A stretch of DNA of 64,000 bases from a phage. Location: assembly GCA_033286805.1 (NCBI GenBank), contig GCA_033286805.1_4727.1. One strand, 5' to 3'. This document shows, piece by piece, positions 7,009-60,324 of this stretch; within the stretch, counting starts at the first letter, position 1; each line of letters starts with the position of its first letter. Both the position numbers and the translations under genes were made by a program. Under the pieces are notes generated by a model. It saw only the letters and a program-made list of their open reading frames with translations, had not been told where the DNA came from and searched no databases.

Positions 7009-8232
7009 TTATTTGGCGTCGTTAAAATAAATATCAACAGCTCGTTCCGTTGCGTAGAGGAGACCAAGATTCACAGTCCCAACCACTTCCGGTGAACCGA
7101 TGATACGGTTAGCGATACTGGTGCCACTGAAGATAGCATCAAGGGTGTGCCCGTCTTCGGTTTTGTTCACACCATGACCCACGGAAGAGACAACGGATTT
7201 CGCTTGAGCTGCGAAGGTACCTTTATCGCCCATCCCCGCACCAAGGTCGTAACGCATGAAAATACGGATGGCGATCTGGTTCTCGCCTAACGGATTACCG
7301 TCTATTCTCACGTTACTATTATTGATACGCCCCGTAGTTGCTTCGTTGAGTTTCAGTTCCTTAACGCGTTTAGCTCGTGCTTTATCCGCTTCACCGACGA
7401 GCGCCGCCATGGTTTCACTCATATCCTCAATCTGAGCGCGGTACAGTACATCGATCTGTACAACTTCACCATGAACGTCAGCACGTGGGTTATACTGACT
7501 CATACGACGTAATGCTTCAACGGCTTCCTGACTCTCATCACTCAGATCGGTCGCAATCGGTTCTTCCAGTGTTGCAAGGATCGTTCGTGGTTCAACATGA
7601 TCGCCGATTTTCACGAGACCACGAATGTTGAGATGAGCGTCAACAATGAGCGTACGGCTCTTAATCGATGGTGTTACGAGACGATCGGCAAGATTGTCGA
7701 AGATATACGAACTGTCCTCGTGAGTCTCTGGAATATCCAGAATACCGACAAGAGACAGAACACCTGCGCGCCAAACAACCTGACCTGGGTTCCACCAATC
7801 GCGTTTAAAATAAAGACGATGGAAGACCACCACATCCTGATCCTTAACGCGATCCCCGACTTTATAATCGGTAATGAGATCGTGAGGATAATACTTACCT
7901 GGTCCTTTCCCGATTATCGTACCGAGCTGGAAAACCTCTTCCCCTAACTCTGGATCGTCGTATTGTATCGTCAGCGCAGTTTTGGTGACCTTCTTAACAA
8001 CACCGTCACCTTGGGCGGCAGCTGCAAAGAGTTTACCAACACGATGCGCGATGACAGTCTCGCCACCCGTACGCCATGGTTGTACATCGTAACCTTCAGC
8101 AGCAATCATGCGGTTGTGCTGTATACCTATAAATACGAGACGCTTTGGCGAAATCCAGCAAAATACATTTACTGTGCGTCTGGATTGTTCAGATAAGGTC
8201 GTTAATCTTATCCCGGAGGCGATGACAGGCAC
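7009..8232 (-). CDS. Multisubunit RNA polymerase beta-like segment (middle region; probable downstream exon of a split beta gene)
   Basis: IQHNRMIAAEG...VQPW...RTGGETVIAHRVG resembles the bacterial beta HDDANRALMGANMQRQAVP...VGTGME region; MGDKGT...GHGVNK resembles GDKxxGRHGNKG; ORF opens only 3 codons upstream of a GTG. Confidence 0.6.
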   Translation of the reverse strand: MPVIASGIRLTTLSEQSRRTVNVFCWISPKRLVFIGIQHNRMIAAEGYDVQPWRTGGETVIAHRVGKLFAAAAQGDGVVKKVTKTALTIQYDDPELGEEVFQLGTIIGKGPGKYYPHDLITDYKVGDRVKDQDVVVFHRLYFKRDWWNPGQVVWRAGVLSLVGILDIPETHEDSSYIFDNLADRLVTPSIKSRTLIVDAHLNIRGLVKIGDHVEPRTILATLEEPIATDLSDESQEAVEALRRMSQYNPRADVHGEVVQIDVLYRAQIEDMSETMAALVGEADKARAKRVKELKLNEATTGRINNSNVRIDGNPLGENQIAIRIFMRYDLGAGMGDKGTFAAQAKSVVSSVGHGVNKTEDGHTLDAIFSGTSIANRIIGSPEVVGTVNLGLLYATERAVDIYFNDAK

Positions 8233-8609
8233 ACCGCCTCCCGCTTACGTTCTCACGCAAGAGCAGACTATATCACATCTCGTTTCAAACGGTGCTTCTT
8301 CAGCACCTCAACGAGAGTTCACTTCTTCCCAGCGCATCCAGCGCCATTCTCTTATCCAAGGAGAATGCCTCACTCGAGGGGTACCGGGGGATGAATCCCT
8401 TAGTCGTTGAACCTTTACCTTAGAACGCTTCACAGCGATCCTTAGGTACTTGGCTGCGGATTGTCCTTAAGCTATTATCTGTTTTTATAACCATACCGTC
8501 TTTCTTTTCAGAATCCGTTTTGGTCGATAACAGCGATGGATGTCTTCGCAATTCAGTGAATCTCATCTACATGTCGCCACATAGACGGACCCTGCTATTA
8601 AAAGCGTTA
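8231..8609 (-). ncRNA. Group I intron (ORF-less), approximate boundaries
   Basis: Minus-strand reading gives P-like GAAUUGCGAAG (about 8543-8556), Q AAUCCGCAGCCAAGUACCUAAGG (about 8447-8466), R GGUUCAACGACUAAGGG (8394-8414), S GAUAUAGUCUGC (8267-8276), in canonical order with GACUA/UAGUC P7 pairing; stop codon immediately at the putative 5' splice site. Confidence 0.75.
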
Positions 8610-11600
8610 ATCATCTCTGTCGGCAGCAGGTACTGCAAGTGCCGATGTACTCATTATTGACGAGCTACCATCCGTTTTCTCGTCGTAGGGTTTCGTTTCA
8701 CCGTATACAGACACAATGTTTGCGTTAGGTGCGAGGTAAGCAGAAATACCTACGTCCCCACTATCCTTCGTACCTTCGGATACAACACCAATGTCCGACT
8801 TGTCGTATTCACGATCGCGTGCGCGTCGAAGCGATGTCTTTGAACGACCCCCGATACCGGTCATCGTTGCTTCTTCACCCTGCTTGATATCCAACATCGG
8901 GTTGGTTTCATCGATCACGATGGAAGCGCTGTCGTCGAGAATTTGGTTCCAGACGCTTACCGGACTGATTGAGATTTTCTGGCGATTTCCTTGACTGCTG
9001 TTCTCATTCTGACGAATAGCGCCAACCAGATCCTTATACACCAATTCAGCGAACTTATCGTACGTTTTAAAACGTTGGTAGTTCACATCGTTGGTGTTAG
9101 GTGCCCAGTCATCCAGAAGCAGTTCAACAGCACGCAGTAACAACATGGCGAAATCGGTAGGTTCTCCCATGTTCTGTAGCAACGTACGGCTTACCGGATC
9201 AACGAAAAGACGCTCCATGAGTTCAAGTTCGCGTAAATGACGAACCTTAAGTCCAGCACCATCGACAACGTTAAAATAGATATCTCGATTGTCAAAAGCG
9301 CCGCGAGCGTAACCAATGTAGTTACGGTACTCGTTAAACCCACCCAGCAACAACGTCGTCATGCGATCGTCTTTACTGAAAATCAAACTTTCGTCGTCAA
9401 AGCTCACCGCGAATTCATCGGGTGCTAAACCCATACGAGAACCGCGAGGTACCGTACGATAGTTTGCTTTAAGATGTTCTAATAACGGGGTAAGTCCACC
9501 CAGATAACTTAGAACAACACCGACCGGAATACGTACACCCATGAATTCAAGATCGGCAGCTTCGATCGGCATCTTAGCCGCATTGATACCGAAGAAATCG
9601 GGGAACGTCCCTACAGGTGTTGGTGTTTGTCCTGACTGACAGATATAGAGCTGATTGCGTTTATCGATTGCTAAGAATTCACCCAGCGTGTTACGCGCAA
9701 ACGTCAGGAGCCCTTCGGCTAACTGTTCGTTGAACCGATCTTCCCCGATGAACTCCGGCAATGTTTTTATATCGAGACGTATATCCCAATCAGCAAATTG
9801 GATTTGGGTATAGTTGCGTGCAAGCACAGCGAAGTAATACGGGACTTTGACGGCCGGATCAAAGACGTTACCACGTTTTAACGTGGTTAAGGGTGAGGAC
9901 TTATCGTAATACATCGCCGTAAGTTGACGTGTTAGCCAACGACCGGCGTTATTAACGACGCGCTCTGAACGTTTAACAAACACCTTACCGTAGGCGGTAC
10001 TCAACGCAACTTCGGATGACGACACCTTTCTGATAGGTTTATCGACGCGTTGTTTACGCATCCGGTACTTGATGCCGTTAACGACATAAATGCCATCCTT
10101 ACGAACCTTCGGCAACATCACCGGGAACGTGGTTGGGACACCGCCTACAGGAGCCAGTTTAATCGTGATGACTTGATAATCCCCCATCACGTCAACAACG
10201 TCTTCGACTTTATAACCCGTAACAGGGTAACCTGCTTGCTGCACCGCAACAACGGCAGCTGCGATGTCCTTTTGCATCACGTGTTCAACGTAATGTTTAT
10301 CCCACACCGCAAGCGTCGATTTACATAGGCTCTTATCGACGATAACATCCGCTTCCGGCATAACCTTTGCTGGCGCTAATTTCGCGGCTTTTGGTTTAAC
10401 TTCAACATACTCAGCAAGTGTTAATCCAGAACCGTCGGGTGCTTCGATTTCGTGGATAGCGTCAGCATTACGCATCGCTGCTTTATATTGAACGCCGCTT
10501 AACTGACCCGCATCCGCCAGATCGCTCGCGCGCACCAACACCGCATCTGATAACGACTGAATATATTCACCGTGCGTTTTTGGTAACGTTGCCGCGTCAA
10601 AGACATCAACCTTTTCTTCTTCGGTATTGTCGGTAACGACTTCGAAGAGATCGTCAGTAATGTCCTGATCTTCATCGGGTTGGAAATCTGGTTGTACTTC
10701 TACCCCGGGTACTTCACGGACATCTTCGAACGAGCGTTCTACAATGGCGTTCCACGCATCAGCGTCATCGTCTTCATCCGACCCACCAACCAACTCCGCT
10801 TCTAACTCATCGGGATCAAGAACAGTGGCCAGATCCTCACCGTTAGGAAGCACGACGTCGCGATCATCGTACTCCGCATCCGGGCTGTCCGCAAGAATAT
10901 CTCGCTCTTGACGAAGAACCTGTTCCTCTTCTTGTTTCTGTTCTTCTTCATTCGCGCTCTGCGACCACAGACGTGTTACCGCCATCATCCAACGACGCTG
11001 GAAGGTTTCAAGTGTCGTTTTATCGAGTTCTTCCCCTTCCTTAACAAGCCCGGTACGCCATTCCTCCAGTAGACCAAGATTCAACGTAAAGAAGTACACA
11101 CCGTCTGTAAATACAACGTTAAGCTTATCCAGTGTGGCTCTGTCTAACGAAGCCATCGTGCTGTTCTCACGATCGGTTCCCAACCAGCGGAAGAAGTCAA
11201 AGAACGATAGCTCCTCCGGCGTGGCGAAATTCATGAGGTTGTTACGGGTCGGTGCCTGTTGCGTGGTACGCATCAACGAAATCTTCGGCAATGTTGACGG
11301 TATACGGAACAACAGAAAGTGTTGACGATCGCTTTGCTGTGCGATTTCGTTGGCTTTCGACCAAATTGTTTTACGCACGTTGAACCATTCATCATACCAA
11401 CGGGTGAGCGTTGGACGATAAATGTACATGTGGTTAAGATGCGCGTAGTTAGCAACGATCTGAGCGTTGATGTTTTTCTCCACCGCGCTCAGATCGGTAA
11501 CCAAACGAAAACGACGATGTGACGCACGATAATCCAATTTCGCTCGTGGGAGTTGGAATCGTTGATCACGTCGAGGTGCGCCCTGTTTGGTTGCGAGATC

Positions 11601-11816
11601 ATCAGCAAACGAAATCCATAGTTGAGCACTTTCTTTACTCAGCATGTATTCGTTTTCTGGAGGACCTATCAATGAAGGATCCGTTGCGGTGTAATGATAG
11701 ACAGCATAACGCGGCAGCTGCAATAGCTGCACTAAACGTAATCTTGGTGATAGTAGCTCTTGGTAGCGTCTGACACCAAACTGTCGGTAGTAATCAAGGT
11801 ATTTAAGTTTTGCCAT
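8607..11816 (-). CDS. Multisubunit RNA polymerase beta-like subunit, N-terminal portion (1069 aa)
   Basis: C-terminal TGIGGRSKTSLRRARDREYD...GVVSEGTKDSGDVGISAYLA matches the bacterial beta GPGGLTRERAGFEVRDVH...[20 protein letters not shown] region; GGAG RBS before the ATG. Confidence 0.65.
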   Translation of the reverse strand: MAKLKYLDYYRQFGVRRYQELLSPRLRLVQLLQLPRYAVYHYTATDPSLIGPPENEYMLSKESAQLWISFADDLATKQGAPRRDQRFQLPRAKLDYRASHRRFRLVTDLSAVEKNINAQIVANYAHLNHMYIYRPTLTRWYDEWFNVRKTIWSKANEIAQQSDRQHFLLFRIPSTLPKISLMRTTQQAPTRNNLMNFATPEELSFFDFFRWLGTDRENSTMASLDRATLDKLNVVFTDGVYFFTLNLGLLEEWRTGLVKEGEELDKTTLETFQRRWMMAVTRLWSQSANEEEQKQEEEQVLRQERDILADSPDAEYDDRDVVLPNGEDLATVLDPDELEAELVGGSDEDDDADAWNAIVERSFEDVREVPGVEVQPDFQPDEDQDITDDLFEVVTDNTEEEKVDVFDAATLPKTHGEYIQSLSDAVLVRASDLADAGQLSGVQYKAAMRNADAIHEIEAPDGSGLTLAEYVEVKPKAAKLAPAKVMPEADVIVDKSLCKSTLAVWDKHYVEHVMQKDIAAAVVAVQQAGYPVTGYKVEDVVDVMGDYQVITIKLAPVGGVPTTFPVMLPKVRKDGIYVVNGIKYRMRKQRVDKPIRKVSSSEVALSTAYGKVFVKRSERVVNNAGRWLTRQLTAMYYDKSSPLTTLKRGNVFDPAVKVPYYFAVLARNYTQIQFADWDIRLDIKTLPEFIGEDRFNEQLAEGLLTFARNTLGEFLAIDKRNQLYICQSGQTPTPVGTFPDFFGINAAKMPIEAADLEFMGVRIPVGVVLSYLGGLTPLLEHLKANYRTVPRGSRMGLAPDEFAVSFDDESLIFSKDDRMTTLLLGGFNEYRNYIGYARGAFDNRDIYFNVVDGAGLKVRHLRELELMERLFVDPVSRTLLQNMGEPTDFAMLLLRAVELLLDDWAPNTNDVNYQRFKTYDKFAELVYKDLVGAIRQNENSSQGNRQKISISPVSVWNQILDDSASIVIDETNPMLDIKQGEEATMTGIGGRSKTSLRRARDREYDKSDIGVVSEGTKDSGDVGISAYLAPNANIVSVYGETKPYDEKTDGSSSIMSTSALAVPAADRDD

Positions 11817-12494
11817 GGGTTAGGCTCCACGAGGTCCCGTTAAGTTGCGTAATAGGAACGCAACCGTATCGTAACCAATATCGATGTTGAATTTATTTTT
11901 ACCACTTACCCAGAAAGCTCGCTTCTTGTGCGAGTTGGTAATTTCGTCAATAGCTTCCATGGAATAAAGAACGTTAACCGAGACCGTATCACCGTCGAAC
12001 CTTGTCTTCGCCTCAGTTCGCTACGCTGAGACCGCCTGCATGGATACGTACATCACAGGCTGCTTGCACTTTCATGCAAGAGGAGACTATATCAAACCGG
12101 CAGCACAACCTGCTACGGTAACCTACACTTCGAAGACGCTTGTCCTCTACAGGGTGGTAAATCCCTTAGTCGTTGAACCTGCGTTGTTTCACATTCTTGC
12201 AAACAAGAATGCCGTATTACTACGCAACAACCAGGCTGCTGATCGCCCATTGTTTCGCACCTTAGCACCGCTTACGCGGCTTTTCTTTCAGCCTAAGCCT
12301 CTTACGGAGGTAGTGCATCTCAACTGTTGTTTCTGCCTTTCGGCACCTCATGGGTCGTTGAGCTTTAGGGGTTCCCAGCAATTCGTAGGTTTTTCAAGCA
12401 CTCTCTTTCGAGAATACCGGACCAATTCAGTTAGTAAACAACATTATTACCATCCCCCATTCTCAAGGGTTAATTTTTTAAAATGATAGAATTA
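11814..12494 (-). ncRNA. Group I intron (ORF-less, about 680 nt), approximate boundaries
   Basis: Minus-strand P-like AAUUGCUGGGAACC (about 12370-12386), Q AUCAGCAGCC (about 12231-12250), R GGUUCAACGACUAAGGG (12160-12180, identical 21-mer to the other intron), S GAUAUAGUCUC (12085-12094). Confidence 0.7.
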
Positions 12495-13985
12495 ATGTGT
12501 TTTTGGGCTAACTCGAAGATCACCGCCTAAACCGGCGAGGTATGGCGCAGGGACAATAGTAGTTTCTACGAACGAAGCATTAGGTAACCAGTCGGGGTAT
12601 TCCCACGCAATAAATCGCTCGTCCGTTATTGGTTCCCAGTTGCTATCCAATTCGGTTTTCGGTTTTGCAGCGACGGTTGTACGCGCGTAACAGGTTAACG
12701 GAATGACGGATTGCATACCCGATACCGGATAACGTGTTACCATCGCTGCCAGGTTATTCCAGTACTTATATCCGGCAATATAGATAAGCTCGGTGTACGT
12801 GATGGGGTGAACATCCGCGCCGGGTTTATTCAACATCTCTGGGGGTAATTCACTCATACCACGGAACAGTCGAAACGAATCATTGTTCACATAGACAAGA
12901 CAAAGATATCGTCCATTAACCATGATAGGTTCGTTACGCACACCAGGATCGCTTAAGGTGTTCAGTAAACGTTCTATTCCGTCCCATGTTGTAAAGTCAT
13001 CGATGGTGTCTGGATCAAGAGTGACACGTTCACGTTCCATCGTTTCGGTATCGATAAGTTCAACTTCTGTAACATCACGGACAAATATTTCCTGCAAAAT
13101 CCCCGTACGTAACGCGTGTTGTGTTACAGGGAGAGCAGCTTTACTCATCTGGTATAACCCTAACTGAACTGCGGTACAGGAAGGCTGGTTAGGCGACCCT
13201 AGTACCTCCGTTGTGGGGTTAATTGCCGAAATAACGTTACGGGTTGAGTTCCAAACACGACGTGAGCCGAACTTCCCTTGGAAGATCCCTTTCTTACCTT
13301 GGAACATATCCAACAGTAAAGCGTAGATATCGTTGAATGTTCTCTGTAAGCTCCAGCGCTGGCCGTCGTAAACGGGATCGGAATAATCTTTTAATCCATC
13401 AGGGACGGTGTTAGAAATTGCAAGGAAACGACGATACAACTCCGTGATTTCTTGCTCGCTTTCATACCCACCTTCTTTTACTTCTATTTCACGTAAGCCC
13501 GCAGGCAATACCAGTAAGTGACGAGTCATCGCTTTGAACATGTTCTCTTCGACGACTTTAATTCGTAGCTCTCGTTGAGCTGAACCCGTTGAAACGAACT
13601 TGATATCCGCGACGTGTTGTGCAAAGAACCCATATCCTGTTTGTCCTGTTAGCGCATCGGACGCAACGAAGTCGCGTTGTTCAGGATCCCACCGAGCGTA
13701 CGCCTTCCCCGACATGATATCACCATAGAGGTGTTTTAGTCGAATGAGGCGGTCGTAAATGACAGGATGCAGGATTTCAACCTTGCATTCAATCACCGCA
13801 AATCGACGGTCTCGATCTTCACTACCCGCACTACCAAAGATGGTGTAAGAATAGAAACCGTCATCGTGGAAATTACCGGTGCTTGGGTCACGGATGCTCA
13901 TGCTCGTGATCTTGGGAAGAAAACGTAACTGCTGTTTATCGAGGTGTAAAATGCTAATGTTAAACGGCTCTCTGACTTTAGCCAT
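12492..13985 (-). CDS. Multisubunit RNA polymerase beta'-like subunit, N-terminal fragment
   Basis: DGFYSYTIFGS ~ beta' DGLFCARIFGP; FAVIECKVEILHPVIY ~ MGHIELASPTAHIWF; LLVLPAGLRE...ELYRRF ~ VLPPDLRP...LYRRV; GKKGIFQGKFGSRRVWNSTRNVIS ~ [23 protein letters not shown]. Start placed at the ATG at 13985 with AAGAGGAG RBS; ORF track extends to 14027. Confidence 0.7.
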   Translation of the reverse strand: MAKVREPFNISILHLDKQQLRFLPKITSMSIRDPSTGNFHDDGFYSYTIFGSAGSEDRDRRFAVIECKVEILHPVIYDRLIRLKHLYGDIMSGKAYARWDPEQRDFVASDALTGQTGYGFFAQHVADIKFVSTGSAQRELRIKVVEENMFKAMTRHLLVLPAGLREIEVKEGGYESEQEITELYRRFLAISNTVPDGLKDYSDPVYDGQRWSLQRTFNDIYALLLDMFQGKKGIFQGKFGSRRVWNSTRNVISAINPTTEVLGSPNQPSCTAVQLGLYQMSKAALPVTQHALRTGILQEIFVRDVTEVELIDTETMERERVTLDPDTIDDFTTWDGIERLLNTLSDPGVRNEPIMVNGRYLCLVYVNNDSFRLFRGMSELPPEMLNKPGADVHPITYTELIYIAGYKYWNNLAAMVTRYPVSGMQSVIPLTCYARTTVAAKPKTELDSNWEPITDERFIAWEYPDWLPNASFVETTIVPAPYLAGLGGDLRVSPKTH

Positions 13986-14230
13986 GGAGACACTCCTCTT
14001 TACCACCACCGGCTGCGGCGGTATCATCTGAACACACGAGAGACGTAATGGGTGATGGCGTCACCCATCGCTTCCTTGCTTGAGGCGAGGAAGTTATTAG
14101 GTTACGTACCTGCCTGATTTTATCAGGTGGGCGATGTGTGAAGTTACGCTTCAACATTATCAATGCCGAAGGTAAACTTCGTGCATCACGTTCCAACGTA
14201 ACATGGGAACGTATCGAACTGGAGGTATAC

Positions 14231-17200
14231 ATGGTAGATAAAACCCGTGTTGAGGGTGATGATAATTGGGACAACTGGGATGAAGACTTCTCCCTGGATC
14301 TCGATTTTAACGAACCCAAAGACGATCGTAAACCGATAACACGCTTTGCGATAGGAGCGGTTAAAGGTGCTGCTGAGGATCTTACTTCCTACGAAAGAAT
14401 GAAGGAGATCGCCAGAAACGCATTGCCTAAGGGCTACAGCGACGGTATGGATCTTATTGATTCCGCCGTCGGATCCACGAAGGAACTATACAATGAAGCC
14501 GTTCGTGACGTTCTTCCTAAGGTCCAAAGTTCAAAACGGTTAGCCGCACAACTGACCAAGAAATACCGTGCGAGCATGCCCGATTTCTCGAAGAAAATTC
14601 TTGAGCAATGGGAGCGAGAAGCCAAGGAAGAAGACGAACGTAAACAAGCTGAAGAAACCCTTCGTCAACGCATGGCGAGCGCGGGGGACGATGAGATCGC
14701 CCGCAAGGTTGCCGAGGTATTAGGCGAATCAGCAAACCAAAGCGCGGATCAGTTCGCTGAACAGCAAGCGAAAGAGAGTATCCGTGACGATATCGCTGAC
14801 AAACGGTACGCTGTAACCAACAAACAAATGAGTGCGATGCAAGAAGGCGTCGCCAAGATGGTTGGTTTCAACAACGAATTCGCTGCACGCTACATGCGTA
14901 AAAGCCTGGAACTGAAATATCGTTCCTTAGCGATTCAACGTGCAAGTTTTGATCAGCATAAAAAGTTAGCCGAAGTCTATATCGGTTTATTACAAAACAT
15001 CCAGAAGAATACGGCTTTACCTGATGCGGCTAAAGCAAAAATGTCGGAAGAATTCCGCCGTAGCGCGTACCAACGTTTCTTTGGTAATGCGTTAGATGCG
15101 ATGAGTTCTTTCGAGAACCGTTTCTTTGCCGATGTTAAGAAGAACCTCGCCACCAACGCATTAGGTGCTTTAAAAGGCGTCGTGTCCGGCGCAAACGATG
15201 CGTTATACGGTTTAAACGAAGCACGTGACTCGATGTCCATGATGGACGGGATGGGGTCAGAAGGCGATATTAAGGAAATGCAAGGAAAGATGTTGGGTCA
15301 GTTCATTGGCTCAACTGTCGCACCATGGATGGCTAATAAAGGCAGGATGGCGTTACGCGATTTAGCAAAACGTCACCCCAATGCTAAATTCGCTAGCGCG
15401 TTAAAAGCCGTGGATCAAGGTGGTGAGGCCGCCGCTTACACGACGCGTAATCTCGGTAAACTGCTCCAGGAAGATATTCGTAAGAACGAATTCAATCTTA
15501 GCGATCCTTTTTACAAGCAATTGTTACGCGGCGCAGGGCGTTGGGCGTTCAACATGGACAGCGGACGTAACTTCCGCGTGATGAACGACACCGCTGAAAC
15601 ACTGGCGGAGCAAACGTCTTTCGACGGTTTAACCTACCGCAGCATCAACGAGGTTATTCCAGGCTTTCTTGCACGCATTCTGAAAAGCAGTGAAGGCATC
15701 CGCACGGGAAACAGCGATCCTGACTACGAGGTCTATGACGGCATCAGCGGGCAATTCGTGTCTCAGCGCACGCGTGAACAAAGCGTCAATGACACGCTGT
15801 TTAACAAACGTACATTTGGTTATTACGCCAGCCGTTTCAATGAAGTCATCTCGGTCATCGATCCTGATAAGCAATTATCGGATAACGCAAGAAAAGGATT
15901 AGCAAAACAGCTAGCTCGTGACAGCGACGCAAACATTGCATTCGACCCGGCTCGTTTTACAGATGAAAGCAACTTCGATCGTAGTATCGACCGTGACGCT
16001 ATTAAGGAACTTTCTAATTACTTCCGTAACCGTTACGGTATCGACTACGTACCCGATGAAAAAGGACAACGCCATCAGGTCATTGGAAACCGCGGGCAAT
16101 ATTACACGGAACGTAACCGAGCGGATCTTCGCTACGGAAATCTGAAATCGTTACAACCGGATATCCAGCGTAACCTTAACCTACTGAAACGCACTGGTGA
16201 CGTCCAATATCTGGAACGTATTGGTATTGTAACGAGAAATAGCGACGGAAGTTACTCGGTTAATCACGATCGGTATTTCTCTGAAATCGATCGGTACATC
16301 GACCGACCGGAGTACGCTGACCGCGGCGATGTTAATACGCGATTAACCGCTCAGGAAACAAGAGCGCTGGCGCTGGGTTATCGTGACGCAAAACCGTCAG
16401 CTGGCGACGTCCAAAATGCGGGTCTGCCGAACATCGACCGTAAGGCTGCTGGAACAGTAACCATTGATGAAAACATCGGTTACGATAAATGGTGGAACGA
16501 CACAGGTGTTATCACCACATCGCTCGAAGAACAGAATCGAGCGTGGCAAGAACTTTATCTCGAAGCGTTGTCCGAAGCATCCGAACAACGTGTCGAAATG
16601 CTTGCGTTGCTGAAAGCCATTTCTGAGAAAGACTGGTCTAATAACGTTTCGCTGGATGGCGAAGATGTACCTGAAGGTACGGCACCCATTTCATTTATCG
16701 ATCGTGCCAAACAAAAACTCGGCACACGCAACCTCTTTAAAGGTGGTCGTAATCTCCTCTGGAAAGGAATTAAAAATACCGCACGTTTGGGTGTTAAAGG
16801 CGCGCGCTGGGGTGCAGAACGCACGTTGGGTAGTTTGGTAAATTCTGGCCGACGCATTATCAATTTCAACCGCTTCGTGTTCGGCGCATTATCCAAGGTC
16901 GATCAGGTTCCGTTTGACATTTACGTTAAAGGGGAATCCCAACCACGCATACTGGCTGCCAAACTTCGTCAGGGGTTATACTTCGACGAAGCGACAGGAA
17001 AAGCCGTAAAACGGATGAAGGATATCAAAGGCCCACTCGTTGATGCGGATGGAAACATCGTAATCAGCAACGAGGATATCGAGAAAGGGTTGGTCACTCG
17101 CGCTGGTCGTGCCTTTGATAATTCAGGACTTAAAGCATGGGCACGTGAAGGTCTTAATGGAATAACGACGGTATTAAGTCTCCCACGGATGTTAAAACGC

Positions 17201-20200
17201 GGTGCGGTCGAGATCTACAAGCAGCTTGACAAAACACCCGACGTTTACGTCAAGGGAGAATCAACGCCTCGTCTATTATCCATGGTGTTAGCGGCGGGTG
17301 GGTACTTCCGTCGCTCGGATGGACAAGTCATCAAAAATCTTGAAGACATCGATGGTGATGTTGTTGATGCACAAGGTAACGTCGTACTTACGCTTGCCGA
17401 CATGCAGAAAGGACTTGTCGATAAATACGGTAAGGCGATTCGTCGTTTAAAAGAAAAGCTCATCAACTTCGGTGTGAAAGCTTTCACGTTACCGTTAACC
17501 TTACTACGCAAGACAAAGGACATCCTTAAAGCCCTTCCAGGTAAAACCGTTAACGGTCTACGGCGGATGGGATTAAATTTCCAATCACCTGACGCATTAC
17601 TGGTGGGAACAACGTCGAGCATGGTAGATCGGCTCGATGCGATTTACCAGCTTCTTGACCAGCGTATGCCGGGTGGTGATAAGGATTACCGCGATTGGAA
17701 TGGCGATGGTGTTCGAGAAGGATCGTTGGAAGACCTGAAACGTAAGCGTGAAGCCAAGGAAAACGGTAAGGACGACACCGGCAAAGATTCCAATAAAGGG
17801 GAAGAAAAGGAGAAGAAACGAGGATTACTCGGAAGCCTTTTCGATATGCTCGGCGATACCGCATTAGGTAAACGACTCATGGCGAGTCCGCTTGGAAAAA
17901 TTCTAGGCGGTCTTGGGGCGGTGTTAAGCGGCGGAGCATCGTTAACCGGATTGTTGGGCAAGGGTCTCATTAGTGGAACCGGCGCGCTAGTCAAGGGAGG
18001 ACTAAGTGCGGCAGGATGGTTAGGACGTGGTGCGTTAATGGCGGGTGGGGCCGCGTTGAACGCCGTTGGTGGTTTATCGGGATTAGGCGCATTCCTTATA
18101 TCACCTGTTGGGCTTGCTATTGCAGGTGGTGCATTGGCTGCTTATGCTGGATGGAAGATCTATCAACATTTCGCCGAGAAGCCTGACCCGATGCAGAAGC
18201 TCCGTCTTATTGCATACGGTGCAAAAGGGGACGATAAAGACTTCAATAAGAAGCTGCTTGCGACAGAAACATACCTCACCGACCATGTGGTTATGACCGG
18301 GGATACCATCGGATTCGATCCGAAAGCGGATTCGGAAAAGATTCTCGAAATCTGGGAATTGTCTCTGGAAGATTCCGATCGAATGAACGAATGGAAACGC
18401 TGGTATCTGCATCGTTTTATTCCTGTTTTCGCTCGTGCGTACAAACTCTGGAAAGAGCATATGCCGGACGAGAAGAAATACATGGAAATGGATAAATATC
18501 CAAACGGTGAGAACAAAGTGAAATGGTCAGAAGCGTTCATCTGGCCTTCCGATAGTCCTGATGGTCCGTATTACGTCGAAGCTAACCCGTTGGGTTCTTC
18601 TGGTGCGACGCGTTATATTGCTGGTCAAGACGTCAAAACCTTGATGCTGAAACAACTCGAAGCCATCAAGAAAGAGTACCAGAATCAGATTAAGCAATAC
18701 ACTCATGATGAGGCTATTGCTGATTGGTCACGGATGTCTGACACACAACGTAAATCCGTTGCGCCTAACGCATTACGTGGTCAGAAAGCGTCGTTACGTT
18801 TTAACGATAAACGTTACAACAGCGCTGGCGCTAAAGGACGACAGAAACTGGATGCAACCGCGGTTATTGAAAGCGTAGACCGTCGCGGTAGGAAATGGGT
18901 TGCCGGTGGATACATCGATGAACTCACCAGTCTCCGTGTTCGTGCGTACGGTATTAAGGTTCCGTTGCTAAGTCAGATAAAAGTGCTGATGGAACTTGAA
19001 GACGCTGTAGAACCTGGTGTAGTCGCTGAAGGTAAAGGTGTTAAATACGGTGGCGATCTTGTTGCGCTCTACAAGAAATTCGCGACGAAGTTCGGAAGAG
19101 ACGTTAACAGCAAGCGGGATCAGGATATCTGGTTTGCTTGGATGAATAACCGTTTCCTGCCCGTCTTTTTAACCTATTACCAACAAGTTAGCGAAATGGG
19201 TGGTCAAGGTCTTCTGTCCGACGTGGTACAGAACCTGAAAGACAGCCAACGTTGGGAAATCGGTGAAGCACTTGTCGCAACGCAATACCGTGATGAGAAA
19301 GGTACACTGCAGCCCGTATGGTCCTGGAATAGTTGTGGTTTCTCCGGTACTGAAGCTAACACCACCAGCAGTTCAACAAAGAGCCAACTCGATCTGTTAA
19401 AAGAATATGCGGATAAAGAGAAGGTTCGTGAGAAGAACGCGGAAGCATCACAAGAGGATACCGATAAATTATCGAAGATCCAAGAGCTGATGATGAAGCA
19501 GGCTGGGTACGAGAAGAAAGACGGTGTCTGGCAGAAGAAATCTCGCATTACCGGCGGGATGAGTAACTCCGAAGCGAATTACAACCCCAATGGGAATAAG
19601 GTCGGTGAAAGCAGCTTTACGGCTTCAGCTACTTCCAGTGCGGGATTGGGGTCAACCGGCGATCTTACTGGATTGCCTAACATGGGCTTACAGAAACCTG
19701 CAACGGGACCAGGTCCTGAAGCTGGACGTCGTGCGCTTGTTAAATCCGCTGTAAAACGCGGTATTACCGATCCAATGGAAATGGCGATGTTCCTTGCGAA
19801 CATCGAACATGAATCGGGGAACTACACTCACGTACGTGAGGGGAACTATAAGACACCAGAGCGTCTTAAACAGGTCTTCCCTTACAAATTCCGTGATGTG
19901 CAGGATGCCGCACAGACGATCAGCATGGGGCCGGAAGCGGTATTCGAACGTGTGTATGGTAATCGTAAAGATCTCGGAAACACACAGAAAGGGGACGGGG
20001 CGAAGTATTTAGGACGTGGCTTCATTCAGGTTACTGGTAAAGCTAACTACGCTCGTCTGTCTAAGACCTTGAATAAGGATCTTGTCAGCGATCCGACATA
20101 CCTGGAAACGCCGGAAGGTGCAGCGGAAGGTAGTGTTGCATGGTGGCTCAACCGAGGTAACGTATTACGCGATCCCGCAAAACGGGGTGACGTACGCCAA

Positions 20201-20896
20201 GTTCGTTATCTGGTTAACGGTGGTTTTAACGGATTACGCGATGTTGAACAACGTTCAGCTTATTGGATTCAGGCGGCTAAGAACGGCACCCTGAAGAGAA
20301 TGATGGACGAGTTATCAGGGTCAACATCAGACGATCAAGCTGAAGGACCGACTACTGCCGAACAGGTGAAGAACGAAGCGGCACAAGAGGCAAACGGAAC
20401 ACCTGCTGTAAGCAACGATCCGCAAGCCCCAGTATCTTCTACTATCCCTGAAGCTAAACCGTCTGCGGCTGCCGGGACGGCTCCAGCACCTGGAGAAGCA
20501 TCGCCAACGCCTGGAAGTTTCGAAACAGCGAAAGCTGCGGCAGGACAACCGACATCGACGCCAGCGCTTAGCGATTTGCCGTCAAACCCGGGCGCAAATC
20601 GAGGGATATCGGTTCCGAATACGCCTGCACAGGTTGCGCAGTCTGCGACACAAACGTCGGCTGCAAGTGAGAACTTCTACGGTAGCGCGGGTGAAATTCT
20701 CCGACAGCAGCTGACCACGCAGCAGAACATCGAGAAGAACACCGGTAGAACGAATGAACTTATTTCGGAATTAATCCAAGCCGTTAAGGGTTCTTCTATC
20801 GGTAAGGGTTCTGCAGGTCCTTCTCAACAACAGACGATGTCGCTACCTAATCGTCCGCAAGGAATATCTCCAACACGGACAAGGTACGCACAGTAG
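14231..20896 (+). CDS. Giant protein (about 2220 aa) with GH19 lysozyme/chitinase-like domain; tape-measure/ejection-protein-like
   Basis: GH19-like motifs FLANIEHESG and YLGRGFIQVTGKANY (about nt 19780-20290); long Gly-rich hydrophobic segment (about nt 17880-18170); internal tandem duplication at about 16910-17560; start placed at the ATG at 14231 with GGAGG RBS (ORF opens at 14138). Confidence 0.7.
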   Translation: MVDKTRVEGDDNWDNWDEDFSLDLDFNEPKDDRKPITRFAIGAVKGAAEDLTSYERMKEIARNALPKGYSDGMDLIDSAVGSTKELYNEAVRDVLPKVQSSKRLAAQLTKKYRASMPDFSKKILEQWEREAKEEDERKQAEETLRQRMASAGDDEIARKVAEVLGESANQSADQFAEQQAKESIRDDIADKRYAVTNKQMSAMQEGVAKMVGFNNEFAARYMRKSLELKYRSLAIQRASFDQHKKLAEVYIGLLQNIQKNTALPDAAKAKMSEEFRRSAYQRFFGNALDAMSSFENRFFADVKKNLATNALGALKGVVSGANDALYGLNEARDSMSMMDGMGSEGDIKEMQGKMLGQFIGSTVAPWMANKGRMALRDLAKRHPNAKFASALKAVDQGGEAAAYTTRNLGKLLQEDIRKNEFNLSDPFYKQLLRGAGRWAFNMDSGRNFRVMNDTAETLAEQTSFDGLTYRSINEVIPGFLARILKSSEGIRTGNSDPDYEVYDGISGQFVSQRTREQSVNDTLFNKRTFGYYASRFNEVISVIDPDKQLSDNARKGLAKQLARDSDANIAFDPARFTDESNFDRSIDRDAIKELSNYFRNRYGIDYVPDEKGQRHQVIGNRGQYYTERNRADLRYGNLKSLQPDIQRNLNLLKRTGDVQYLERIGIVTRNSDGSYSVNHDRYFSEIDRYIDRPEYADRGDVNTRLTAQETRALALGYRDAKPSAGDVQNAGLPNIDRKAAGTVTIDENIGYDKWWNDTGVITTSLEEQNRAWQELYLEALSEASEQRVEMLALLKAISEKDWSNNVSLDGEDVPEGTAPISFIDRAKQKLGTRNLFKGGRNLLWKGIKNTARLGVKGARWGAERTLGSLVNSGRRIINFNRFVFGALSKVDQVPFDIYVKGESQPRILAAKLRQGLYFDEATGKAVKRMKDIKGPLVDADGNIVISNEDIEKGLVTRAGRAFDNSGLKAWAREGLNGITTVLSLPRMLKRGAVEIYKQLDKTPDVYVKGESTPRLLSMVLAAGGYFRRSDGQVIKNLEDIDGDVVDAQGNVVLTLADMQKGLVDKYGKAIRRLKEKLINFGVKAFTLPLTLLRKTKDILKALPGKTVNGLRRMGLNFQSPDALLVGTTSSMVDRLDAIYQLLDQRMPGGDKDYRDWNGDGVREGSLEDLKRKREAKENGKDDTGKDSNKGEEKEKKRGLLGSLFDMLGDTALGKRLMASPLGKILGGLGAVLSGGASLTGLLGKGLISGTGALVKGGLSAAGWLGRGALMAGGAALNAVGGLSGLGAFLISPVGLAIAGGALAAYAGWKIYQHFAEKPDPMQKLRLIAYGAKGDDKDFNKKLLATETYLTDHVVMTGDTIGFDPKADSEKILEIWELSLEDSDRMNEWKRWYLHRFIPVFARAYKLWKEHMPDEKKYMEMDKYPNGENKVKWSEAFIWPSDSPDGPYYVEANPLGSSGATRYIAGQDVKTLMLKQLEAIKKEYQNQIKQYTHDEAIADWSRMSDTQRKSVAPNALRGQKASLRFNDKRYNSAGAKGRQKLDATAVIESVDRRGRKWVAGGYIDELTSLRVRAYGIKVPLLSQIKVLMELEDAVEPGVVAEGKGVKYGGDLVALYKKFATKFGRDVNSKRDQDIWFAWMNNRFLPVFLTYYQQVSEMGGQGLLSDVVQNLKDSQRWEIGEALVATQYRDEKGTLQPVWSWNSCGFSGTEANTTSSSTKSQLDLLKEYADKEKVREKNAEASQEDTDKLSKIQELMMKQAGYEKKDGVWQKKSRITGGMSNSEANYNPNGNKVGESSFTASATSSAGLGSTGDLTGLPNMGLQKPATGPGPEAGRRALVKSAVKRGITDPMEMAMFLANIEHESGNYTHVREGNYKTPERLKQVFPYKFRDVQDAAQTISMGPEAVFERVYGNRKDLGNTQKGDGAKYLGRGFIQVTGKANYARLSKTLNKDLVSDPTYLETPEGAAEGSVAWWLNRGNVLRDPAKRGDVRQVRYLVNGGFNGLRDVEQRSAYWIQAAKNGTLKRMMDELSGSTSDDQAEGPTTAEQVKNEAAQEANGTPAVSNDPQAPVSSTIPEAKPSAAAGTAPAPGEASPTPGSFETAKAAAGQPTSTPALSDLPSNPGANRGISVPNTPAQVAQSATQTSAASENFYGSAGEILRQQLTTQQNIEKNTGRTNELISELIQAVKGSSIGKGSAGPSQQQTMSLPNRPQGISPTRTRYAQ

Positions 20897-20945: not shown

Positions 20946-23087
20946 ATGGGTATTCTTGTTCAAAACGCCCTAATTACCAAACAAGCGTTTTTATTACCAG
21001 GCGATAGCAGCACGCTTAGTGCCGACATGATTAAAGCGAGACATACACCGTATTCCTACGATAACGTCGATGATACCACCTTAGGCGGGAACTGGGTGCT
21101 TAACCCACCACCGCAATATACCAAATTTGCCGACATCAAAGAACGCCGACGTGCGGTTATGCCGGGATCAACGGGCATGGGCCGAGGCTATAGTGAAAGC
21201 ATTAACAGCTTTAAAGAAGTCGTTACGTTACGATTCGGTAAACCTCGCTTTACAGGCGCAAGTATCTTCTTTACTGATTTCTACGATGCGGATGTTGCCG
21301 TAACGGTTAAAACCGGTCGCGATCCCGGTATTCTTTATTACGCAGCCAAAGCGTATACCACCGTTCTTTCTTACCTCACACCTCTACCTTACCTGTATAT
21401 GGTTGGACGTATCGGTCGATATTTCCTGGGTAAGCCTACCAGTCAATATTACTATCAAGTACCAACCATGCACGTGTATTGGGCGTCTTTCCAGACGCTG
21501 GTAAACCAAACAGCGATAAACATGGGTCTTATCGCCGGTGCCGGTAAAGATAAAGGCTATGTTGAAGAAGGGGGTACCGTACTCCACCAATATTCAATCG
21601 GTGGTCAGAACGTTGAAGAATTCATCAACTACGCCTCTAAGACGCTACCGGGGATTTATAAGAAAGGTGGTGGGATCGATATCTACCAGATTGCAACACG
21701 TCGTCAGCGTATACAGAACGCATGGGTACGTCGTATTCAATCCATGATGGAAAACGATTACTCGTCTTACGAGGAGTTCTGGAACGATCTTGATAAACGA
21801 CTTGATAGCGGAGCGTTTCCATCGGATGTAACCGGCCGTACGTTAACGCAGTATCTCGCCGACACACAGAAGTCTGCTGTTTACAGTGCGACAGCTGGTG
21901 ATAATAAACAAACGATGGACGACCTTTTATTTGGAAGAGCCTCGTACACCAATAAAGATGCTGACGCCAACTTCAATGTCTCAGCGGCTACCTCCGACGG
22001 AGGTACGTCAACACAGAGTCAGGGTACAACAGCCAATGTCGGTAATTCAACGTCAGGGACAACGCAGGCTTCAACAGCAGCATCAACGGCTGGAGGCGCT
22101 AACGTACAGAGCAAAGGAATCGGTCAAACGAACGCAGCCGAAGAAGCTACGTTTCTTGATCTGATGGATGCTGAACTGGCCGATGGTGCTCAGTTTATCA
22201 GTTTTCGAGTCGACTCTGTCACCAGTGTAACCGAAACGTTTTCAAACAGTGCTTCAGAAAGTTCAATCGCGCAGACGATGAACAGTCGTGCGCAAGCGAA
22301 CATCGAACGTCGTTTCACCCTTTCCGGTGGTAATACAGGTTGGGCTGTACTAGACGAAGCAATCAAAGCCGGTTCCGATCTCGTCAACGGTGCTATTTCC
22401 GGAATGGGTCTGGATGGTATTTTTGGTGCCTTCATGGGTTCCGGCTTCGCTGATATTCCGAAATTCTATTCTGGGTCTTCGGTAAGTCTACCGCGTGCGG
22501 ATCTGACGATGGAATTACGTTCCTGGAGTGGGGATCGTTGGTCGATCTTTACGAACCTCATGGTACCTCTTTTAGCTATCCTTGCAGGTGGTTTGCCTCA
22601 GGCTACCGGTAAATCGTCCTACGGGATGCCATTCATGTGTGAGTGTTATATTCCCGGTAAAGTCCAGATTAAAATGGGTCTTATCGATAACATCACCGTG
22701 ACGCGTCATGTTGGAAACGTACCATCAACACGTGAGCGGTTACCGTTAGGCATCGATGTCAGCTTCAGTGTTTATGACCTGTCGTCCATCGTCGCCATGC
22801 CGATCACAACGACAGCCGCATCGATCGCAAAACTGGATCCTCGTGGCTTCTTAAGTGATCTTCTTGCTGATGATACTCCGCTCAACAACTATCTTGCTGT
22901 ATTATCGGCATTGACACTTACGGAACAAGTTTACATGATTCCTGATTTAAGTCGTCGCATGCATAAAACCATGGCTGATATCGATAGTTTCTGGAGCAAA
23001 GGTAATTTTGCTAGCTGGTTGTCTGACACCATGCCTGGCAGGATAGCATCAGGGCTGTTATGGAAACGTACAGAACGACCGTTCTGA
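20946..23087 (+). CDS. hypothetical protein (713 aa) with Ser/Thr/Gly-rich low-complexity segment; possibly structural
   Basis: Long ORF downstream of the giant gene; low-complexity stretch ATSDGGTSTQSQGTTANVGNSTSGTTQASTAAS. Confidence 0.55.
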   Translation: MGILVQNALITKQAFLLPGDSSTLSADMIKARHTPYSYDNVDDTTLGGNWVLNPPPQYTKFADIKERRRAVMPGSTGMGRGYSESINSFKEVVTLRFGKPRFTGASIFFTDFYDADVAVTVKTGRDPGILYYAAKAYTTVLSYLTPLPYLYMVGRIGRYFLGKPTSQYYYQVPTMHVYWASFQTLVNQTAINMGLIAGAGKDKGYVEEGGTVLHQYSIGGQNVEEFINYASKTLPGIYKKGGGIDIYQIATRRQRIQNAWVRRIQSMMENDYSSYEEFWNDLDKRLDSGAFPSDVTGRTLTQYLADTQKSAVYSATAGDNKQTMDDLLFGRASYTNKDADANFNVSAATSDGGTSTQSQGTTANVGNSTSGTTQASTAASTAGGANVQSKGIGQTNAAEEATFLDLMDAELADGAQFISFRVDSVTSVTETFSNSASESSIAQTMNSRAQANIERRFTLSGGNTGWAVLDEAIKAGSDLVNGAISGMGLDGIFGAFMGSGFADIPKFYSGSSVSLPRADLTMELRSWSGDRWSIFTNLMVPLLAILAGGLPQATGKSSYGMPFMCECYIPGKVQIKMGLIDNITVTRHVGNVPSTRERLPLGIDVSFSVYDLSSIVAMPITTTAASIAKLDPRGFLSDLLADDTPLNNYLAVLSALTLTEQVYMIPDLSRRMHKTMADIDSFWSKGNFASWLSDTMPGRIASGLLWKRTERPF

Positions 23088-23142: not shown

Positions 23143-24212
23143 TTAACCTAATGTCACTGTCGGTAAATCAGGATAAAGTTTCTTCAAGCCAGCCATTGTG
23201 GTGGTAGTTGTATAATTCTTACCCATCACAGCAAGAGATGCATATTTCCTGCTGCGGGAGAAAAGAGAATAGAACCCACTGGATGTTTCCATCCACATCG
23301 TGAGGAGTTCTGCATCGTTACCGTGATAGTTCGTTTTACCCCATCCGGGTTTAAACGCATCGGCAAAATCAATTAAACGCGAGGCTTCAGCGTCGTATTC
23401 TTTAAGGGTAATATACGATGGGATACGGTAGTTACGAAACAGTAACGTAATGAGTTCAGGGACAACACTGCGGGCACGTTCAGCCGTAATGAGTTCGGTG
23501 ATAACAGCAGCCGTACGGAAATCGCCGTTGAGACCAACGCTACTTAACGATTCCGCTAAGGTGGTCGCCATCGCTACTTTATCCTCCGCTGACCCGGAGT
23601 CATACAGACTACGTACATCGATGTAGTTGCCTGCTAATGCGGCTTGACGAATCAACGACGTGACAACCGTCCGGTTCGTCTTATAGTCGTTGTAACTGAA
23701 TTCGGTTCGCGTTTTCCCTTGATCGTCGAGATACCGATCGACAATCGTTGAAAGTTTATAATACTCATCGCCCGACATCAGACTATCGAGAAGCTTAACG
23801 TTTCCATCTTTATCAATAAGCTTCCCTAACGCGCCATTGGATTGCTGGTTAATGGTACTGTAAATCTGGTCTTTTACTTGCGATAGGATGTTATCGGTTG
23901 ACGATATATTCAGGCCAGTAACATCTTTGATCTTATTCATCAACGCGTTTTCATTCAGGGAGATTTTGCCTCCGCTGATATCGATGAAAGAATTAAGATC
24001 GCTTATGGAAATCAGGTTTCCTGTTAACGCCGATAGTGTACTATTGATACTGTTCGTAATACTGCTGCGAAAACTGGTTAACGCATCCGCCGCTGAAACA
24101 GCGGTACCGCTAACCGCTTTAAGGAGCGTATCGCGCCCTGTCGAAAAATCGCTGGTGATGGTTTTGATCTTGGACGTATCTATACTCGGCAGTTTGTCGT
24201 AAAGACTCATCA
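23143..24212 (-). CDS. hypothetical protein (about 356 aa)
   Basis: Start placed at the ATG at 24212 (MSLYDKL...) preceded by CAGGAGGA RBS; the ORF-track start at 24261 overlaps the upstream hairpin. Confidence 0.5.
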
Positions 24213-24249
24213 CGTCCTCCTGAAAAAGAAAAAAGAAATACGGCATAAA

Positions 24250-24275
24250 GCCTACCCACACAATGGTGGGTAGGC
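24250..24275 (-). terminator. Intrinsic terminator on the minus strand (GCCTACCCAC...GTGGGTAGGC, then T-rich tract)
   Basis: Perfect 10-bp stem; minus strand continues TTTATGCCGTATTTCTTTTTTCTTTTT. Confidence 0.6.
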
Positions 24276-59808: not shown

Positions 59809-60324
59809 CTACCCCATATAACGTTTTTGGCCGAGGATAAAGACCTTGTTAAGGACCACCGAGGTAATGCCTGACGCGTTGCAACTCACCTGCCCAACAC
59901 GAATCGCTGTTGATGAATCAGCCCCAGCACTACTGTTCCAACTCCAGCCGACCGACCCACCTTTCTGATGAATAAACAGATATCCGGTTTTGTTTGCCCA
60001 ATCGGAAGTAAGATTTTTGATGTCTAACGTTCCTTTCGCCAGAATATAGTCGGTACCAGCGATCATGACGGGGATTTCAGGATACGAGATTACCGTACCG
60101 CTGGCGGTAACGTTGCTGATGCGATCACTACGAATATCAGTACAATCACCGAAATACGCTACGGGGAGTATCCCCTTAGGGAGCTTTTTGCCGATTCTCG
60201 TATCGATAGTGTTTTTATCGGGTGCGTCGATTTGCGCTGCAGTGACTTGGTTAGGGTTATCCTTCCTTGCGTACCATGTCGTCATGCGAGCACCCAATTC
60301 ACTCATTTTTGTGCCCATTTTCAC
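59809..60324 (-). CDS. hypothetical protein (171 aa), tail-fibre-cluster gene
   Basis: ORF in the fibre cluster. Confidence 0.45.
   Translation of the reverse strand: MKMGTKMSELGARMTTWYARKDNPNQVTAAQIDAPDKNTIDTRIGKKLPKGILPVAYFGDCTDIRSDRISNVTASGTVISYPEIPVMIAGTDYILAKGTLDIKNLTSDWANKTGYLFIHQKGGSVGWSWNSSAGADSSTAIRVGQVSCNASGITSVVLNKVFILGQKRYMG

Follow-up and report, generated by a model that had tools for sequence, protein, structure and literature searches.

Chimalliviruses inject their DNA into a lipid EPI vesicle, and how such phages deliver DNA into a membrane vesicle is the key open question of the paper on Escherichia phage Goslar, a nucleus-forming jumbo phage of the Chimalliviridae. Among the virion proteins of these phages is a family of giant proteins whose founding member, phiKZ gp181 (2237 aa), was characterised as a virion lysin in 2008 (Briers et al. 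2008). The muralytic activity of phiKZ gp181 is put at 60,000 U/mg and its lysin fragment is highly muralytic, and phiKZ orf181, in which no transposon insertions were found over 6.7 kb, is essential and has been called the likely tape measure. The homologue in SPN3US, gp239 (259.1 kDa), has been called the tail tape measure and is depleted more than 10-fold in tailless particles. In Goslar, virion mass spectrometry (Table S4) detected the corresponding protein, YP_009820915.1, with 34 peptides (24% coverage) under the label 'Tail protein', at an estimated 3.4/5.1/8.0 copies per virion. Here we analyse a giant gene of this kind in a 64,000-nucleotide stretch of phage DNA (NCBI GenBank assembly GCA_033286805.1, contig GCA_033286805.1_4727.1; hereafter the window). 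In our reading it probably encodes a chimallivirus tail-internal protein of the phiKZ gp181/SPN3US gp239 family, with a tape-measure or ejection role.

The tails of the two best described relatives have been resolved by cryo-electron microscopy (cryo-EM). In phiKZ the tube measures 2000 Å in length and has a ~68 Å lumen and 43 rings at a rise of 37.7 Å; that of Goslar (tube gene gp217, sheath gene gp218) has 46 layers. The 2026 Goslar and phiKZ cryo-EM papers leave the giant 250-kDa essential protein of this family unplaced, which matters for jumbo-phage biology; the main text of the Goslar paper never takes it up and contains no 'gp204', and that of the chimallivirus core-genome paper is likewise silent on it.

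The giant gene and its relatives

The window comes from a relative of Goslar (96% identical), and its giant open reading frame (ORF) matches Goslar YP_009820915.1 (HOV27_gp204, vB_EcoM_Goslar) with 96.3% identity in DNA and 98% in protein; Goslar gp204, phiKZ gp181 and SPN3US gp239 are its orthologues. The profile phrog_3201 spans the whole giant protein (E 4.2e-293), and all chunks of 200-500 aa up to aa 2060 match it, in order, while in the same chunk-wise PHROG search the C-terminal 192 aa alone gave no phrog_3201 match. The gene and the one that follows it are, with residues numbered throughout from the GTG:

14138..20896, plus strand: giant coding sequence, a 6.8-kb gene (2252 aa from GTG 14138; 2221 aa from ATG 14231)
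20946..23087, plus strand: homologue of Goslar gp203/phiKZ gp182 (phrog_3181, E 6e-172; assignment from cryo-EM)

Translation probably begins at ATG 14231 and not at the GTG annotated at 14138. A GGAGGT lies at 14221-14226, 4 nt upstream of the ATG, the homologue P0003 (88% identical) begins MVDKTRV, and more distant homologues start at the equivalent acidic motif, without the 31-residue extension encoded from the GTG (14138-14230). No peptide from this extension is among the Goslar virion mass spectrometry peptides listed.

The giant gene and the virion RNA polymerase genes are transcribed in opposite directions, away from each other; the Goslar record describes one of the latter as similar to phiKZ ORF179. 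The Goslar gp203 homologue begins 50 nt 3' of the giant gene. In the cryo-EM atlases, Goslar gp203/phiKZ gp182 is the hexameric tube-initiator/spacer ring of the baseplate hub, lying between tube and hub. The genes for gp181 of the phiKZ-like phage PA7 and gp239 of SPN3US occupy the corresponding place, pointing away from the virion RNA polymerase genes and lying upstream of the gene for the hub ring. The neighbourhood bears on a different reading, in which the protein would be packaged in the capsid like T7 gp16, listed in a review as an internal head lysin, would be ejected through the tail, and would cut the wall and form an inner-membrane channel with no role in tail length. Divergence from the genes of the injected virion RNA polymerase fits this idea, as do the many proteins that chimalliviruses inject and the combination of low copy number, lysin and membrane segment, as described for T7 gp16. 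We nevertheless regard it as very unlikely, because the gene that follows on the same strand is that of the baseplate hub ring, the protein is labelled as belonging to the tail in the Goslar mass spectrometry table, and the tailless SPN3US particles from which the homologue is depleted keep their head contents.

Database labels would send the protein elsewhere again. Goslar gp204 is a 'putative chitinase' in GenBank and a 'tail fiber protein' in RefSeq, and the latter is also the label of phrog_3201. That the protein is a tail fibre seems extremely improbable to us: searches of Pfam, PHROGs and folds found no fibre, receptor-binding or trimeric beta-helix domain, the protein holds a lysin and a membrane segment, and the label is a propagated one, the same records being named chitinase, lysozyme or peptidoglycan hydrolase in GenBank.

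Repeats, membrane segment and lysin slot

Comparisons across the family used 85 giant homologues of 2048-3880 aa, drawn from a search of 5.8 billion proteins, and structures were modelled with AlphaFold2 (AF2). From its N terminus to its C terminus the giant protein comprises:

14231..16912, plus strand: N-terminal ~890 aa (phrog_3201 positions 8-801; conservation over 83 homologues)
16913..17236, plus strand: module A, copy 1, aa 926-1033 (self-alignment z = 28; AF2; family hidden Markov model (HMM), E 7e-41)
17237..17560, plus strand: module A, copy 2, aa 1034-1141 (self-alignment; family HMM; AF2)
17723..17824, plus strand: Lys/Glu/Asp-rich linker, aa 1196-1229 (composition: 65% charged, K/R/D/E)
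17822..18163, plus strand: Gly/Ala/Leu-rich hydrophobic segment, aa 1229-1342 (composition, hydropathy)
18173..18688, plus strand: module B, copy 1, core aa 1346-1442, AF2 domain aa ~1351-1517 (profile, AF2)
18905..19363, plus strand: module B, copy 2, core aa 1590-1689, AF2 domain aa ~1595-1742 (profile, AF2)
19733..20287, plus strand: predicted GH19 endolysin-type peptidoglycan hydrolase domain, aa ~1866-2050 (phmmer, PHROG, triad)
20315..20662, plus strand: Ala/Pro/Ser/Thr-rich low-complexity spacer, aa 2060-2175 (composition)
20669..20893, plus strand: conserved C-terminal helix and basic tail, aa 2178-2252 (conservation over 83 homologues)

The order of module A (in varying number), hydrophobic run, one to three copies of module B and lysin is kept in 78 of 79 homologues, and it recurs in PA7 gp181 and SPN3US gp239. 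Neither modules A and B nor the N terminus has a significant match in Pfam or NCBIfam, and modules A and B have none among solved structures; matches to DUF3659, Talin_R4, DfrA26 and PRK04517 lay far below their cut-offs and were rejected. The N terminus is acidic and conserved (DDxWDxWDxD...PKDDRKP) over the 83 homologues and leads into a body conserved in the family; this whole N-terminal part of ~890 aa is presumed to be head-proximal and to span the length of the tail. Within the body, aa 601-800 (~15938-16537) form a local divergence hotspot: P0001, the nearest protein in the database (98% identical), differs at 42 residues overall, 16 of them here.

The first-pass annotation had described a tandem duplication of a module of ~108 aa, and the repeat itself is significant and lies where it was described. 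In a windowed Smith-Waterman comparison of the protein with itself, aa 926-1033 against aa 1034-1141 scored 181, against a shuffle mean of 29.2 (standard deviation 5.3, maximum 61; z = 28); whole-protein blastp against itself returned the diagonal only. A duplication event in this gene, in contrast, was not borne out, and module A is instead an ancient, family-wide repeat. Over the 66-aa core the two copies are 47% identical in protein and 52% in DNA, with 24 of 66 third positions identical; the duplication is old, as judged from this DNA identity and from the near-random third positions, and a recent DNA duplication was rejected on the same 52% nucleotide identity. A profile built from both copies and iterated once found between 0 and 6 copies per protein in 86 giant homologues, with two copies in 58 of them and five or six in single proteins. 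Among two-copy proteins, copies at the same position are more alike across proteins than copies at different positions (mean scores of 98 versus 83), which indicates that the duplication predates the spread of the family. Of 1.84 billion cluster representatives, 1379 matched a profile of the pair; the best 150 of these are nearly all longer than 1,200 residues. In the AF2 model, made from a 41-sequence alignment, each module consists of a beta-rich core of ~65 aa (pLDDT >90) followed by a basic helical linker of ~40 aa (pLDDT 50-65).

The number of A copies bears no relation to total length or to the position of the membrane segment and first B module (B1), the Spearman rho being ~0. Instead, the interquartile range of the distance from the N terminus to B1 is ~1350-1640 aa irrespective of how many A copies can be recognised, and in proteins with more copies the first recognisable one merely begins earlier. 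This suggests that the flanks of module A are probably degenerate A copies and that the overall length of the part from the N terminus to B1 appears to be constrained. A copy number as a ruler was rejected, both on the absence of correlation and because phiKZ-like gp181 has more copies but serves a shorter tail.

The linker described as rich in lysine and glutamate after the repeat, and the Gly/Ala/Leu-rich hydrophobic segment of ~90 residues, are both present. Glycine, leucine and alanine make up 26%, 21% and 17% of the latter (64% together), its uncharged runs lie at aa 1255-1274 (20 residues) and 1298-1339 (42 residues), and all 19-residue windows of the protein with a Kyte-Doolittle mean >1.0 fall within aa 1229-1342, a region that holds approximately three candidate membrane helices. 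The label of glycine zipper does not hold: the strict motif ([GAS]xxxGxxxG or GxxxGxxx[GAST]) occurs 2 times, against 5.5 +/- 2.3 in composition shuffles, and zipper periodicity was rejected as not above chance. Of the 79 homologues that have both modules, 78 carry an uncharged hydrophobic run between the last A and B1, 18-98 residues in length (typically 30-95), and in most of them it stops a few residues short of B1.

Directly behind the segment lies a second repeat, missed by the first-pass annotation. The two cores of module B (aa 1346-1442 and 1590-1689) align with a Smith-Waterman z of 8.6, a score that none of 2000 shuffles reached, and reciprocal ortholog profiles of each copy detect the other (E 1e-14 and 8e-15). 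Two copies occur in 61 of 83 homologues. Copy 1 starts 4 residues after the hydrophobic segment, and the AF2 models of both copies are alike, mostly helical with a beta-hairpin (pLDDT 85-98), with a disordered linker (aa ~1539-1591) between them. Both stretches modelled, aa 915-1145 and 1343-1800, are made up of globular cores, and the helices that connect these have low to medium confidence. A tblastn search with the B pair alone hit 192 phage records at one place each; those listed are all of 210-316 kb and come from phiKZ-like jumbo phages. In P0044, P0033, P0028, P0018, P0016 and P0085 a second uncharged hydrophobic run stands just upstream of the second B, and P0044, with three B copies, has three units of hydrophobic run plus B. 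This arrangement suggests that the ancestral repeating unit may have been a hydrophobic (membrane) segment joined to module B; the second hydrophobic run is lost in the protein of the window.

As the first-pass annotation had proposed for ~19780-20290, the C-terminal third carries a GH19-like catalytic domain. Six solved GH19 lysins of phages or prophages match it with E values from 1.9e-24 to 9e-18 (by phmmer, 1.9e-24 for 9EOI, 4.3e-23 for 7R6S and 3.4e-19 for 4OK7, the SPN1S endolysin), as does the profile phrog_181, 'endolysin', with E 1e-53. Pfam PF00182 stays below its 25.5-bit cut-off (23.9 bits for the isolated domain, 18.2 for the whole protein); that model is centred on chitinases, and by its alignments the domain is a real GH19 domain divergent from it. 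The Glu/Glu/Thr triad is intact: alignment gives E1892 as the equivalent of the proton donor, E1901 as that of the base and T1966 as that of the water-coordinating residue, with roles and numbering from Table 1 of the GH19 Engineering Database paper (PMC8547705), and G1959-R1960-G1961 (GRG), Q1964 and N1970-Y1971 are also kept. The domain is thus predicted to be a peptidoglycan hydrolase. Across the homologues (P0009, P0044, P0059, P0071 and others) this slot varies, holding one or more domains of the SLT, GH19, VanY, M23, CHAP, glucosaminidase and SleB-like types, and such swapping is expected if any wall-cutting activity suffices. Some add a Peptidase_S74 self-cleaving chaperone domain or a DUF5675. 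From its domain content, the C-terminal third of the family's proteins looks like a swap-in cargo slot.

The spacer beyond the lysin is retained in particles, since the Goslar virion peptide AAAGQPTSTPAPSDLPSNPGANR maps to it (aa 2060-2175). According to a 2026 preprint, gp29, the tape measure of T4, forms the inner-membrane channel and is predicted to bind the tube-initiator ring gp48; by analogy with this predicted gp29-gp48 complex, the conserved C-terminal helix and basic tail of the giant protein are a candidate anchor to the baseplate hub.

Proposed placement in the tail and role in DNA delivery

The combination of repeat, linker, membrane segment and GH19 domain had been taken by the first-pass annotation as that of a tape-measure or ejection protein that spans the envelope and digests peptidoglycan, and homology supports this, the role being the one that the literature gives to the orthologues. 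We infer that the protein lies in the tube lumen, acts as a ruler, is ejected and inserts into a membrane. The tail would most likely incorporate a small number of copies (3 or 6), their C termini fixed at the baseplate hub next to the ring protein of the neighbouring gene, and the long N-terminal part would probably extend up the wide lumen of the tube as a scaffold or tape measure. When the sheath contracts, the protein would leave before the DNA; its GH19 domain would open the peptidoglycan locally, and the Gly/Ala/Leu-rich segment, together with the adjoining B domains, would enter the inner membrane and there form or line a conduit for DNA and co-injected proteins. With the lumen and rise of phiKZ and the ring number of Goslar, ~68 Å over 46 rings of 37.7 Å gives a volume of ~6.3e6 cubic Å, of which 3-6 copies of 245 kDa would by calculation fill ~14-28%. 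The constant distance from the N terminus to B1 fits a length constraint. The 46 rings of Goslar and 43 of phiKZ, two data points that go with proteins of nearly equal length, speak neither for nor against a ruler. The hydropathy profile places a hydrophobic segment in the distal half (aa 1229-1342), as in tape measures, and this segment gives weak matches to the tape-measure PHROGs 28, 1533 and 58 (E 3e-5 to 7e-4).

Several observations weigh against this placement. Neither the Goslar nor the phiKZ cryo-EM paper models the giant protein or uses the term 'tape measure'. No curated tape-measure domain of Pfam or NCBIfam matches the protein, and the weak tape-measure PHROG matches are confined to the compositionally biased hydrophobic segment. 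The gene does not adjoin the tube and sheath genes but has an RNA polymerase gene upstream, where no frameshifted chaperone pair was found. In the AF2 model the cores of module A are globular beta domains, not an extended coiled coil. Copy number does not track tail length (three A copies and 43 rings in phiKZ-like phages versus two and 46 in Goslar), and phiKZ-like gp181 has a far weaker hydrophobic segment.

The protein could also be an external baseplate enzyme, part of a cell-puncturing device or a peripheral component, which would digest the wall from the baseplate and would neither measure the tail nor enter the cell. In earlier papers phiKZ gp181 was assigned, as a putative trimer, to a 'needle-like cell-puncturing device', much of the peripheral baseplate is unassigned in both Goslar and phiKZ, and ~6 copies would suit a six-fold structure. 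We consider it unlikely, given that the Goslar paper and the phiKZ atlas account in full for the spike, spike cap, hub and inner wedges with other proteins, that an uncharged hydrophobic run of 30-95 aa, found in 78 of 79 homologues, is hard to fit to an exposed soluble protein, and that the SPN3US workers call the homologue a tape measure.

A more far-reaching idea concerns the EPI vesicle. In our searches the uncharged Gly/Ala/Leu segment with its B cassette was found only in giant tail proteins of phiKZ-like jumbo phages, and this lineage restriction, with the topology of the protein, raises the possibility, doubtful in our view, that the hydrophobic segment and module B could insert in the inner membrane and shape or gate the EPI vesicle as a resident pore or anchor. 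In that case the tape measure would stay on as part of the first compartment instead of serving as a passing channel alone.

Both the protein and its proposed role have been described before, and annotation of the gene exists for a genome that is 98% identical. Added here are the two repeat modules, of which we found no description in the literature, the membrane segment that in most homologues abuts module B, the interchangeable lysin slot, the probable correction of the start and the negative result on the zipper. This domain map gives handles for experiments on DNA delivery: modules A and B, the membrane segment, the lysin slot and the candidate C-terminal anchor.

Nearby introns and comparison with known systems

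Farther along the window, at 23143-24261 on the minus strand, lies a homologue of Goslar gp202, the lower baseplate wedge by cryo-EM, which puts the giant gene at the edge of a baseplate gene cluster. On the other side, a group I intron (Rfam RF00028, 55.3 bits, E 7e-12) lies at 8244-8611 on the minus strand, in a virion RNA polymerase gene. It is absent from Goslar, where 33 bp stand in place of 494 bp here (8147-8640), and it splits the Goslar gp207-like ORF into 8607..11816 and 7009..8232. A second group I intron, at 12063-12447 on the minus strand (56.5 bits, E 3e-12), is common to Goslar. Next to it, 94 bp (12424-12517) replace a 1570-bp Goslar stretch that holds gp206 (490 aa, 'similar to phiKZ ORF179'), so that the genome of the window lacks gp206; from its intron-adjacent position, and by analogy with the published intron-borne endonuclease of PhiPA3, we suspect that gp206 is a homing endonuclease. 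The 148-aa ATG ORF at 12040-12486 on the plus strand, which runs antisense across the shared intron, is most likely spurious.

The closest described system remains phiKZ gp181, which is of the same family: tblastn covers aa 66-1761, at ~25% identity overall. It and its PA7 orthologue share with the giant protein the gene neighbourhood and, in order, module A, a Gly/Ala-rich segment, two B modules, a lysin and the C terminus, and PA7 gp181 has a similar charged linker followed by a GLFGxLGD motif. They differ in the lysin, which is an SLT (PF01464) in phiKZ gp181 and a GH19 here, and in that phiKZ-like gp181 has three recognisable A copies rather than two and a shorter, weaker hydrophobic segment. 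SPN3US gp239 likewise has two B modules. Its hydrophobic runs (1350-1372 and 1398-1436) immediately precede B1 at 1442, its gene is syntenic with those of the virion RNA polymerase, and the protein has been tied to the tail by experiment; it differs in having only one recognisable A copy and 2372 aa, with ~23% identity over the aligned parts.

The lysin on its own resembles the GH19 endolysins 4OK7, 9EOI and 7R6S, keeping E49/E58/T130, GRG, Q128 and N134-Y135. Those are free lysis enzymes of 20 kDa, whereas here the domain lies inside a virion protein of 250 kDa, and it has Asn at position 45, where Gln is usual.

Among tape measures outside the family, T5 Pb2 reportedly has both fusogenic and muralytic activities (Boulanger et al. 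2008). It consists of a long N-terminal part, hydrophobic membrane segments and a C-terminal wall-degrading domain, and it is expelled at infection. The giant protein has the same order of body, membrane segment and lysin. The two have no detectable sequence relationship, and Pb2, which a review lists among muralytic tail proteins, belongs to a siphophage, has 1219 aa and a lysin of the metallopeptidase type, and lacks modules A and B. T4 gp29 is, like the giant protein as we read it, a myophage tape measure with a transmembrane region, and the gene equivalent to that of its ring adjoins the giant gene; gp29 differs in having 591 aa and no lysin domain (T4 uses gp5), and no sequence similarity between the two was detected.

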